Source: a virus
Lineage: Duplodnaviria; Heunggongvirae; Uroviricota; Caudoviricetes
Length of the DNA: 6,824 nt
IMG/VR virus record: IMGVR_UViG_2548876698_000001
Location: 1-6,824 of that record
Reading direction: 5' to 3' (one strand)
Shown here: piece by piece, positions 3,001 through 6,824 of the stretch
Position numbering within the stretch: position 1 is the first letter of the stretch
Layout: every line of letters starts with the position of its first letter
Program-made: the position numbers

Positions 3001-6000
3001 TGCAAAAATGCTCGAAACCGATCAGGCGTGGGAAGTGTTCGAAAAACTGGAAGACTGCTATTTCAGCCAGGGCGAGAAAAATACTGGCAAACAAGAGAAG
3101 AAGCTCAACGGGCTTTCCGCAAAAGAAACAGACAGCCTTGTATGGCTGTGGGATTATGCCAACCGCTCACAGGCATTGTTCCGTGAGTTGTATCCCGCAT
3201 TAAAACTGATTCAGTCTGGCTATTCCGGCATATGCCACGACTACGGCTATGAGTTCTCGTATATCATCGGGAGGGCGAGGGGCGTTTTAATTAATCACAC
3301 GCGGGATATAGATATTTATGAGCCTGACGGGCCGACGAACCTTCTGGCATGGGAAAGGCTTAAGAACAAAGAGTTGCCGCCTTCACTGCATCGCTACTGA
3401 CAATTGACAACTTAACAAACCCAGCTTCGGCTGGGTTTTTTATTGCTGAATTTTCAATGTGAGAGGACATGACAATGAATGAGCTGATAAATAGCAATGC
3501 CATCAAAATGACAAGCATTGAAATCGCTGAGTTGGTGGGAAGCCAACACGGTAATGTCAGAATATCAATAGAACGTCTGGCAAAGCGTGGGGTGATTCAA
3601 CTTCCTTCAATGCAAAAAGTTGAAAATAAACAAACAATTAGCCCTGACAAATTCACAAGCGTGTATATATTCGAAGGCGAACAAGGTAAGCGAGACAGCA
3701 TTATTGTCGTCGCTCAGTTGTCGCCGGAATTCACCGCTCGCCTTGTTGACCGCTGGCGAGAACTCGAAGGGGCAACCGCGAAAATACCACAAACCTTTTC
3801 TGAGGCATTGCGCCTTGCGGCCGACCTTGAAGACCAGAAGGCTGAACTGGAGAAACAGCTTGCTCTCGCAGCACCTAAAGTTGAGTTTGCCGATCGAGTT
3901 GGCGAGGCCAGCGGAATTTTGATTGGAAACTTTGCAAAGGTTGTTGGTATTGGTCCAAACAAACTGTTTGCGTGGATGCGCGATCACAAAATCCTTATTG
4001 CTTCAGGTGCCCGGCGCAATGTGCCAATGCAGGAATATATGGATCGCGGCTATTTCACAGTGAAAGAAACAGCGGTCAATACAAATCACGGAATACAGAT
4101 ATCGTTCACCACAAAAATCACCGGGCGTGGTCAACAGTGGCTGACAAGAAAGCTGCTAGATAACGGAATGCTTAAAGTAACAGGGGAGGCTGCTTAATGG
4201 CTAAACCAGCGCGAAGGAAATGCAAAATCTGTAAGGAATGGTTTCACCCGGCATTCTCAAATCAGTGGTGGTGCAGCCCGGAACACGGAACTAAATTAGC
4301 ACTCGAACGACGAAATAAAGAACGCGAAAAGGCGGAAAAAACAGCAGAGAAGAAACGACGACGAGAGGAGCAGAAACAGAAAGATAAAATTAAGATTCGA
4401 AAACTCGCCTTAAAGCCCCGCAGTTACTGGATTAAACAAGCCCAACAAGCCGTAAACGCCTTCATCAGAGAAAGAGACCGCGACTTACCATGTATCTCGT
4501 GCGGAACGCTCACGTCTGCTCAGTGGGATGCCGGACATTACCGGACAACTGCTGCGGCACCTCAACTCCGATTTGATGAACGCAATATTCACAAGCAATG
4601 CGTGGTGTGCAACCAGCACAAAAGCGGAAATCTCGTTCCGTATCGCGTCGAACTGATTAATCGCATCGGGCAGGAAGCAGTAGACGAAATCGAATCAAAC
4701 CATAACCGCCATCGCTGGACTGTCGAAGAGTGCAGGGCCATCAAGGCGAAGTATCAGCAGAAACTTAAAGACCTGCGAAACAGCAGAAGTGAGGCCGCAT
4801 GACGTTCACAGTAAAAACCATTCCTGACATGCTCGTTGAGGCATATGAAAATCAGACCGAGGTAGCCAGAATACTGAACTGTAGTCGCAACACGGTCAGA
4901 AAATACACTGGCGATAAAGAAGGAAAAAGACACGCTATTGTCAACGGTGTTCTTATGGTTCATCGCGGATGGGGTAAAGATACTGATGCGTGATATCCGG
5001 CAGGTTCTTGAGCGCTGGGGTGCATGGGCGGCAAATAACTATGAGGATGTTACATGGTCGCCCATTGCTGCCGGATTTAAGGGACTGATCCCCGAAAAAG
5101 TAAAATCACGTCCACAGTGTTGTGACGATGACGCGATGATTATATGCGGGTGTATGGCTCGCCTTAACAGGAACAACAGCGATCTGCATGACTTGCTGGT
5201 TGATTATTACGTGTTGGGGGAGACGTTCATGGCGCTGGCACGGAAACATGGGTGCTCTGACACCTGCATAGGTAAACGCCTTCACAAAGCGGAGGGGATT
5301 GTTGAAGGCATGCTGATGATGCTGGGAGTGAGGCTTGAGATGGATCGGTATGTTGAGCGTGAATTGCCGGGAGGGAGAACCTCTGTATTTTATCAGCGAA
5401 AAAATAGTTTACGATCGTAAAAATCTGCATATCATGATAAGAGTGGTTACATTGCCACGCTGCTTAACCCGCCGATGCGCGGTTTTTTTTGTACCCAGAA
5501 TCCTGTGAGCTATACGGAAAGTACACAGAAAGGAAGGTGCGACCACAATTAATAACAAAATCTTAAAAATTGCACATGGCACTATTAGTTTTCTAAATAT
5601 TGTGTATTTTTTGTATTGCAGGATGACCCTGTAACGAAGTTTGCGTAACAGCATTTTGCTCTACGAGTTTGCCAGCCTCCCCCAGTGGCTGGCTTTTTTA
5701 TGTCCGTAGCGTCAAAGCAGCAATGTCGCTGGGGCGTCGTGCAATTGGCGTTGAGCTGGAGACTGAACGTTTTGAGCAGACGGTCAGGGAAGTACAGGAT
5801 TTAGTCAGTCAGAACGGATGATATTGCAGAATTAACCGGGTATCAGGTACGCCCCGAAAATTTTAAATGTCTCACAATTCAGACGGTTGACAGTTGTCTG
5901 GTTTGCGGGGAGTTTGTTAAAAGAAACTGGCATGGTGAATCCCCCTGAGCGGAGGGGCATATCAGCGCAGGTGTTTCTACTCTATCCTTTCTGTGCGGGT

Positions 6001-6824
6001 TCAGGTGCTGATACTGAACTCACCGGGAGGCACCCGGCACCATGCATATGGTTAACAGACACGTAGCGAAGCCCCTCTCCGGAGGGGCTTTTTTTATGGG
6101 CAAAAAAAGCCCGCGCTGGGAGACGCGGGCGGCAAGGAATAAACAACAAAACGTGAAGTAATATTTCAGCTGGCGAATAATACCCCATGGTAATCACTCT
6201 GCGCAACTGCGCGGCCTTTTTCGAATTGCGGGCTGTAAGTCTCCCTTCTGCCATTGTCCTGTAACTTCCGGACTTCAGCCCGCTCTTTATCTGATTCAGT
6301 ACACTATCCCGGCCGGGAGGATTCATGACATTTAAACATTACGATGTGGTCAGGGCGGCATCGCCGTCAGACCTTGCTGATGCACTTGCGCAAAAAATTC
6401 GTGAAGGATGGCAACCATACGGTGGGCCGTTTTCTTCGTATACGGATGATGGCGCAGCACTTATTCAGGCGATTGTCGCAGAAGGTGATGTGAGCACACC
6501 TGTTGTGGTGAAGCCGACAGGTGGAGAAGGTGCAGTAATCAGTGCCACCAGCGACCCGGAGTATTACTTTGTTGTGGTTCTGGCAGGGCAGTCAAACGGC
6601 ATGTCGTATGGTGAAGGTCTTCCGCTGCCGGAGACATATGACCGTCCGGAGCCGCGTATTAAGCAACTGGCGCGTCGCAGTACGGTGACACCGGGTGGTG
6701 CAGCATGCAGATATAACGACATCATTCCGGCGGACCATTGTCTGCATGATGTGCAGGACATGAGCCGTCTTAACCATCCGAAAGCGGACCTGTCAAAGGG
6801 GCAGTACGGAACCGTGGGGCAGGG

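Follow-up and report, generated by a model that had tools for sequence, protein, structure and literature searches.

Convergent pairs of Hfq-binding small RNAs (sRNAs) have been described 3' of the late promoter PR', at the cargo (moron) site, in eight Sakai prophages (Tree et al. 2014, PMC4104026). Table S2 of that study pairs EcOnc05 on the plus strand with EcOnc08 on the minus strand in Sp4 (EcOnc08 being ~271 nt, with homologues EcOnc21 and EcOnc42) and EcOnc27 (+) with AsxR (-) in Sp5, and gives Northern sizes of ~222 nt for EcOnc05 and 235/247 nt for EcOnc27; the primary 5' ends of AgvB and AsxR were mapped by 5' rapid amplification of cDNA ends (5' RACE) in the same work. EcOnc05, EcOnc27 and sRNA103 correspond to STnc100, the curated Rfam family RF02076 (PMC4104026, PMC7873438), which is described in the literature as lying 75 nt after stx2B and is related to PasD1/PasD2 of enteropathogenic Escherichia coli; PasD is an Hfq-binding RNA found abundantly in CsrA complexes, and overexpression of sRNA103 (EcOnc27) raises the transcript levels of fimZ and espA. 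Another RNA of this region, StxS, was characterised by experiment in Sakai Sp5 and Sp15: PR' starts 258 nt upstream of the 3' end of the terminator tR', the RNA binds Hfq, RNase E cuts it at +173 between GU and AUU, leaving a stable StxS, and StxS activates rpoS translation in an Hfq-dependent manner (Sy, Lan & Tree 2020, PMC7547250). Here, these systems are compared with the interval 5500-6324 of a 6,824-nt stretch of a lambdoid prophage (positions 1 to 6,824 of the IMG/VR record IMGVR_UViG_2548876698_000001, hereafter the window), which lies between the genes Q and nanS-p.

This interval is very probably the moron site of a lambdoid prophage of the 933W/Shiga toxin (Stx) type, which is without cargo and keeps the conserved noncoding scaffold that flanks the cargo in Stx phages. 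Sequence similarity identifies, with high confidence, RNA genes of the StxS, STnc100 and EcOnc08 types at this site; nearly all parts of the interval have been described before, which makes it an ordinary form of a known locus, one without cargo. An earlier note on this DNA had singled the interval out as a place for an undescribed RNA-based function, which does not hold, because all three RNAs match described ones (StxS, STnc100, EcOnc08/21/42).

Several other statements of the earlier note were borne out, namely that the stx position is empty and that the interval contains hairpin-rich DNA, an AT-rich island and a methyltransferase 3' remnant but no protein gene. ARAGORN found no tRNA in the window and Rfam searches found none either, no stx is present between Q and nanS-p, and in 5500-5900 neither ARAGORN nor Rfam (listed down to E ≤ 1) detected a tRNA or another curated RNA; where Stx-converting phages carry ileZ-argN-argO and stxAB between Q and nanS-p, the window has 26 nt between the breakpoints. 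None of the five open reading frames (ORFs; 42-114 aa) within or overlapping 5500-6324 matches Pfam at E ≤ 0.01. In 5300-6500, five terminator-like sites were found against 1.3 ± 1.0 in shuffled sequence; hairpins followed by a U-run occur on the plus strand at 5671-5699, 6068-6098 and 6199-6222, and the minus-strand terminator is at 6130..6102. The hairpin at 5671-5699 has a 9-nt loop outside the limits of the terminator scan, its structure being evident in the fold, and the weak plus-strand site at 6199-6222 is formed by the DNA of the minus-strand promoter. The AT-rich island is located at ~5540-5620. The features of the locus are as follows, comparison loci being denoted by L numbers.

4986-5420, plus strand: Q gene (PF06530, Pfam).
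5408-5435, plus strand: late promoter PR' (-35 TTTACG, -10 TATCAT at 5430-5435; promoter scan), overlapping the 3' end of Q.
5441-5698, plus strand: StxS gene (StxS_L, 258 nt), placed by spacing and by identity to Stx2a phages.
From ~5615/5623 to 5698, plus strand: stable 3' fragment StxS_S, holding the AT-rich island and the tR' hairpin.
5671-5693, with a U-run to 5699, plus strand: hairpin of the terminator tR' (fold).
5708/5711-5821, plus strand: non-functional 3' remnant of a methyltransferase gene, a pseudogene by the Prokaryotic Genome Annotation Pipeline (PGAP) in the homologous loci L001 and L003.
5746-5793, no strand: putative crossover within the methylase 3' end, placed by a switch of single-nucleotide polymorphisms (SNPs).
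5835-5860, no strand: empty cargo (moron) slot, 26 nt (BLAST breakpoints).
5840-5868, plus strand: putative STnc100 promoter (-35-like GTATCA 5840-5845, 17-nt spacer, -10 TTAAAT 5863-5868).
~5874-6098, plus strand: STnc100-family sRNA, ~225 nt (Rfam RF02076; EcOnc05/EcOnc06/EcOnc27/sRNA103 type).
5879-5901, plus strand: 5' hairpin of the STnc100-type RNA (fold), upstream of the start of the Rfam model.
6068-6098, plus strand: intrinsic terminator of the STnc100-type RNA (fold).
6171..6102, minus strand: EcOnc08/21/42-type sRNA, predicted short form of ~70 nt (identity to the Sakai Sp4 EcOnc08 peak; fold), with a 5' hairpin, the U/G-rich single-stranded GUUUUGUUGUUUAUUCCUUGCC, a stem at 6130..6109 and a U-run at 6108..6102.
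6177-6206, minus strand: EcOnc08-type promoter (-35 TTGCGC 6206..6201, 18-nt spacer, -10 TATTAT 6182..6177).
6228-6324, plus strand: 5' untranslated region (UTR) of nanS-p, with a long hairpin (arms 6228-6235/6276-6283 and inner pairs) and a small hairpin at 6308-6317 over the Shine-Dalgarno sequence.
6325, plus strand: start ATG of nanS-p, a DUF1737/SASA esterase gene, the N-terminus of which matches DUF1737 (Pfam).

The AT-rich island and the first plus-strand terminator are the body and the tR' of StxS, because the StxS geometry fits the window exactly. Transcription from PR' would start at ~5441; counted from there, the RNase E motif GUAUU at 5613-5617 occupies +173 to +177, and +258 is position 5698, within the U-run 5694-5699. 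The RNA gene lies between PR' and tR', directly 3' of a 933W-type Q, and spans 258 nt, just as StxS (EcOnc15) does in Stx1 and Stx2a phages; the interval start chosen by the earlier note, 5500, cuts through this gene. Alignment of 5301-5834 with the Stx2a phage LC616031 showed 99.4% identity with three substitutions, only one of which (5483) falls within 5441-5698, and the ungapped alignment of 4901-5834 with Sakai Sp5 showed 95.5% identity, where the sole mismatch seen in 5615-5698 is at 5625. Two differences from the Stx phages can be pointed out: the window prophage is without stx, so that the stx1B-repressing role of StxS has no local target, and the G of Stx2a phages at 5483 is T in the window, which weakens a small 5'-proximal hairpin of the transcript. 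This hairpin (5466-5490, plus strand) is G+C-rich, is followed by U8 well upstream of tR', early in the PR' transcript, and resembles an early terminator or pause element; its stem is one G-C pair stronger in the Stx2a phages. By analogy with Sakai, PR' would fire constitutively from ~5441, the lysogen transcript would end at tR' to give the 258-nt StxS_L, and RNase E would trim it at 5613-5617 to the stable Hfq-binding StxS. StxS would thus not be induced by Q, as it is the product of tR' termination, which Q abolishes. Phage lambda 6S RNA is likewise a short PR'-tR' transcript with a constitutive start, which ends at tR' and is abolished by Q. The two RNAs share, in terms of general lambda biology, the PR'-tR' origin, and their sequences are unrelated; to our knowledge, no trans-regulatory role has been assigned to 6S RNA, unlike StxS.

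The second RNA gene clearly belongs to the STnc100 family. A cmscan search matched RF02076 at 5901-6101 (+) with 148.1 bits (gathering score 47, E = 7.3e-34) over the model positions 1-206, that is, at full length; the multi-stem build, the terminator and the place before the sialate esterase gene are the same as in the family, and the predicted fold has an energy of -90 kcal/mol (z = -3.5). The context is also that of STnc100, which occupies the same position in L001-L006 and L008, in the late region beside the esterase gene and 3' of the cargo site. Differences concern the central variable arm, which is distinct in the Stx2 copy (~72% identical overall), the 5' end, where the window transcript is probably ~30 nt longer than the Rfam model and has an extra hairpin, and the immediate upstream neighbour, which in the window is the methylase remnant and not stx2B or tRNAs. 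The 5' hairpin at 5879-5901 is kept in most, though not all, of 26 variants, which is supportive, not decisive. At its left edge, STnc100 keeps the block TTAAAT-N5-CACAATTCAG in many differing upstream contexts, and GGGTATCAG, 17 nt upstream of TTAAAT, is conserved in cargo-less contexts; these conserved blocks suggest a promoter with a start near 5874, which would give an RNA of ~225 nt, similar in size to EcOnc05 on Northern blots (222 nt). Of this putative promoter, the -35-like and the -10 element lie on opposite sides of the right edge of the cargo slot, and in tRNA-bearing relatives the cassette replaces the -35-like element. Besides single copies, one IMG/VR contig (L057, 1486-1785) contains two STnc100 cores in tandem, 275 bp apart.

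The minus-strand gene is, judged by its similarity, of the EcOnc08/42 type and, being convergent with STnc100, forms with it a "convergent sRNA dyad" in the sense of Tree et al. The Hfq peak of EcOnc08 in Sakai Sp4, obtained by crosslinking and analysis of cDNA (Hfq-CRAC), corresponds to window positions 6176..6104, with 72 of the 73 bases identical and the sole mismatch in the terminator loop, in a wider region (5861-6380) of 86.8% identity to Sp4; the flanks (STnc100, nanS-p) are the same as well, and nothing substantive separates the window RNA from EcOnc08/21/42 of Sakai Sp4 and Sp15. The terminator hairpin is retained in all 11 aligned variants, and the single-stranded G/U-rich stretch is also conserved. 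The RNA has no Rfam family. Its gene was found in 985 of the 5,426 complete E. coli genomes compared and in 54 phage records, Stx1, Stx2a and Stx2d phages among them; the genome rows listed show no annotated feature at the match, and two pattern scans of the GTDB species representatives, one genome per species, revealed no such RNA outside E. coli. The short form would start at ~6171. Both dyad RNAs would be transcribed in the lysogen from promoters of their own and would act in trans by Hfq-dependent base pairing, confidence being low for specific targets.

Elsewhere the same slot is held by other sRNAs. STnc100 is followed, in the same relative position, by a convergent AgvB (L003, L005) or AsxR (L002) according to Rfam, where the models RF02702/RF02703 score 96.5 bits in L003/L005 and 88.1 bits in L002; in the window, neither AgvB (RF02702) nor AsxR (RF02703) gave a match at E ≤ 1, and the same models are silent in L001 and L004. 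The promoter architecture is common to both kinds of locus (TTGCGC-18-TATTAT in the window, TTGCGC-18-TAAAAT at the AgvB/AsxR loci L002, L003 and L005), as are the short build with an intrinsic terminator and the Hfq binding, known for the homologue EcOnc08. The window RNA thus shares with the anti-sRNA class the convergence with STnc100 at the moron site and the TTGCGC-18-TAWWAT promoter. Membership in AgvB/AsxR/EcOnc03 was nevertheless rejected: there is no Rfam match, the conserved 3' block of ~42 nt (GUAUCUCAUGC...GCCCGAACCCAYUCGGGC) is missing, and the body and the terminator are unrelated. The AgvB decoy is C/A-rich, whereas the body of the window RNA is G/U-rich (GUUUUGUUGUUUAUUCC), and AgvB/AsxR/EcOnc03 measure 51-60 nt against the ~271-nt Northern band of the window RNA's homologue. 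Sub-threshold Rfam matches to OmrA-B and anti-hemB at ~6063-6190 (-) were attributed to the terminator hairpin and also rejected. The 127 loci compared that have an STnc100 core include both types of partner as well as several rarer ones, and many copies are without such a partner.

Rather tentatively, the EcOnc08 type might be a second, unrelated cassette family that uses the promoter and slot of AgvB/AsxR, which would make the dyad position a swappable plug-in site for Hfq-dependent regulators. The single-stranded G/U-rich GUUUUGUUGUUUAUUCC is similar to a portion of the GcvB R1 seed and could act on C/A-rich targets; the RNA could also pair with the C/A-rich AgvB decoy from a co-resident prophage, for which the predicted duplex energy is -14.4 kcal/mol (2.6% of shuffles as good, z = -2.4), a weak signal that is not relied on here. 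Predicted duplexes with AsxR, EcOnc03 and GcvB R1 were no better than shuffles. A ~271-nt form could be a cis antisense to the translation start of nanS-p.

The BLAST search for endpoints proposed in the earlier note placed the breakpoints at 5834 and 5858-5868 in L001, L002, L003, L008 and L137. Between them lie 315 nt (ileZ-argN-argO) in L001/L003, ~1650 nt (tRNAs and stx2AB) in L002/L008 and 26 nt in the window. The slot has at least four states: empty, tRNAs only, tRNAs with stx1 or stx2, and TerB. The last was seen in L129 (4279-4710) and L132 (4298-4729), where an identical Q is followed by a 143-aa TerB-domain gene (PF05099) in place of stx. At the left edge of the slot, TTGCAG at 5824-5829 (+) aligns as the -35 of a promoter, the -10 of which, TATTAT, is within the tRNA cassette of L001, L002 and L003, and is an orphan in the window; the promoter at that site drives the tRNAs (Sy et al., PMC7547250).

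The two sides of the slot have different closest relatives. The left half (4901-5834) is 98.7% identical to the Stx2a phage LC616031, and the right half (5711-6824) is 99.1% identical to a prophage of the O103:H2 strain 12009, where the same junction comes straight after an intact 352-aa methyltransferase gene, without tRNAs or stx. A 141-nt query (5790-5930) matched O103:H2, O145:H28 and O157:H7 genomes at 100% and 96 records at 99% identity or more. The earlier note had weighed against its own proposal an end-to-end alignment of the interval with common uninterrupted prophage sequence that yields no stable transcripts; in the places searched there was no one-piece match, each half aligning at at least 99% identity, and homologous loci do yield stable transcripts. 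The exact join in one piece was absent from the 5,426 complete E. coli genomes and from 50,697 phage records, and a search for the junction pattern in IMG/VR, the third comparison set, found nothing.

The homologies of the two halves overlap at 5711-5834 (124 bp), and the intact 352-aa methyltransferase of L004 and L005 aligns from 5711 on. Over 5711-5793 the window equals the Stx-type module, from which it departs at 5794 and 5830; against the intact-methylase type, its differences are at 5719, 5722, 5726 and 5745, whereas 5746-5900 is the same in both. The SNP allegiance switches between 5745 and 5794, and therefore a homologous crossover is placed at 5746-5793. Such an exchange in the 124-bp methylase 3' end would have joined a Stx-type Q-StxS module to a module of STnc100, EcOnc08 and nanS-p, the donor of which would be a prophage that never had tRNAs or stx in the slot. 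Contigs with an identical Q protein have cargo-bearing neighbours throughout (stx1, stx2, the TerB-domain gene or tRNAs). Because of this, and because no one-piece join was found, the most parsimonious account is that cargo was lost through recombination with a cargo-less prophage in the same host, the direction of this event being inferred.

The order of events might have been the reverse, in that the Q-StxS module replaced the 5' part of the methylase first, the tRNAs and stx came later, and the window is a surviving intermediate with an ancestral empty junction. The cargo-less join of methylase to STnc100 is indeed widespread and intact in full-methylase prophages, and on either side of the slot the cargo boundary separates elements of a promoter, as for an insertion into an existing junction. 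This scenario appears improbable to us, since the switch of SNP allegiance in the 124-bp overlap is what a recent crossover of diverged lineages predicts, and a surviving lineage would have to be very rare to have left no one-piece match in the E. coli genomes, the phage records and IMG/VR.

A pure deletion scar, which the earlier note had offered as one of two explanations, would mean that the Stx/tRNA cassette was excised and that the hairpin-rich remainder is functionless debris. The methylase remnant is a dead gene fragment, and all the other copies of the left module that were examined precede tRNAs, with or without stx, or TerB, so the cargo-less state is probably derived. The scar is very unlikely all the same: no tRNA or stx residue, not a single cargo-derived base, is left, and the 26 nt are the native junction of the cargo-less intact-methylase prophages; the supposed debris consists of conserved RNA genes with a strong Rfam score, kept terminators and Hfq and Northern evidence in homologues; and the remnant, being shared by Stx phages that bear cargo, cannot be the scar of this event.

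The other explanation, undescribed noncoding RNAs switched on by Q antitermination, stood in one part, since noncoding RNA genes are present, and failed in the other. Every plus-strand element lies 3' of PR', within the read-through transcript, an STnc100-family RNA could in principle be processed out of that transcript, and the -35-like element of STnc100 is lost to the cassette in tRNA-bearing relatives. We consider it highly unlikely, given that the three RNAs match described ones, that the Sakai homologues were recovered on Hfq from cultures not described as induced (PMC4104026, PMC7547250), that one RNA is on the opposite strand with the promoter architecture of the 5' RACE-mapped AgvB/AsxR, and that StxS needs termination at tR', which Q suppresses rather than induces. 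On induction, the Q-modified polymerase would read through all these terminators into nanS-p and the late operon.

Least credible is a small-protein gene among the short ORFs, chiefly the 114-aa minus-strand ORF 5982-6326, for which one can cite the PGAP partial "hypothetical protein" pseudogenes at the equivalent place on the minus strand in L001, L003 and L005 and, in Sakai Sp3, ECs_0817, a hypothetical protein annotated on the minus strand in the stretch from Q to the lysis genes, but which has no Pfam match, runs antisense through the STnc100 gene and both terminators and has its centre swapped for unrelated AgvB/AsxR-type sequence in sister loci, the frame not being conserved.

Several points weigh against the reading of the interval as a cargo-less moron site with three working RNA genes. 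The crossover is supported by six informative SNPs only. The expression, Hfq binding and sizes given for these RNAs, like the processing and targets of StxS, are those published for homologues, and the mechanism is established, also in homologues, for StxS only. The terminator-like hairpin with U8 at 5466-5490 does not fit the simple 258-nt picture, and the proposed -35 of STnc100, GTATCA, matches the consensus poorly. The published Northern for EcOnc08/21 gave ~271 nt (PMC4104026) against the ~70 nt predicted here; the main EcOnc08-type species may start farther upstream, in the 5' end of nanS-p, as a cis-antisense RNA, and inspection of the nanS-p 5' end by eye found no convincing promoter for a 271-nt form.

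The leader of nanS-p is structured as well. RNAalifold on 17 variants indicated five pairs with compensatory changes in the long stem, the arms of which are GCGGGCUG...CAGCCCGC, and G-U pairs in the variants L115 and L074 favour the plus strand for this stem; roles of the leader hairpins in attenuation, RNA processing or the control of translation are conceivable. In Sakai, the Hfq peak of EcOnc21 is on the strand opposite the nanS-p 5' UTR hairpins.

Farther upstream, the window contains the nin-to-late region and a C4 module, which precedes two antirepressor genes (2723-3400 and 3469-4197) and comprises three Rfam matches above the gathering scores at 2471-2669 (+).

2471-2523, plus strand: c4-a1b1 (Rfam).
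2484-2558, plus strand: isrK (Rfam).
2585-2669, plus strand: C4 antisense RNA (Rfam).
4197-4802: NinG gene of the nin-to-late region.
4799-4993: NinH gene of the nin-to-late region.

The c4-a1b1/isrK/C4 trio is a P1/P7-type C4 immunity module controlling ant, and the Stx2a phage locus L002 has these three RNAs as well. As for the Sakai comparisons, the coordinates of Tree 2014 and Sy 2020 agree exactly with NC_002695.2 at Sp4 (~1.18 Mb) and are ~140 bp off at Sp5 (~1.27 Mb), so there must be an indel between genome versions, and published sRNA coordinates are to be moved with care.

StxS and the STnc100/EcOnc08 dyad persist intact in a prophage without toxin or tRNAs, which means that what they do does not depend on the cargo. 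The interval is a natural minimal version of the locus and bears on why such dyads are placed 3' of the late promoter and ahead of the lysis genes, an arrangement the reason for which was called unclear in a review of 2021. Genome records leave two common RNA genes unannotated, one of them being present in ~18% of the complete E. coli genomes. A crossover in a 124-bp gene remnant would offer co-resident prophages a route to remove or install toxin cargo.

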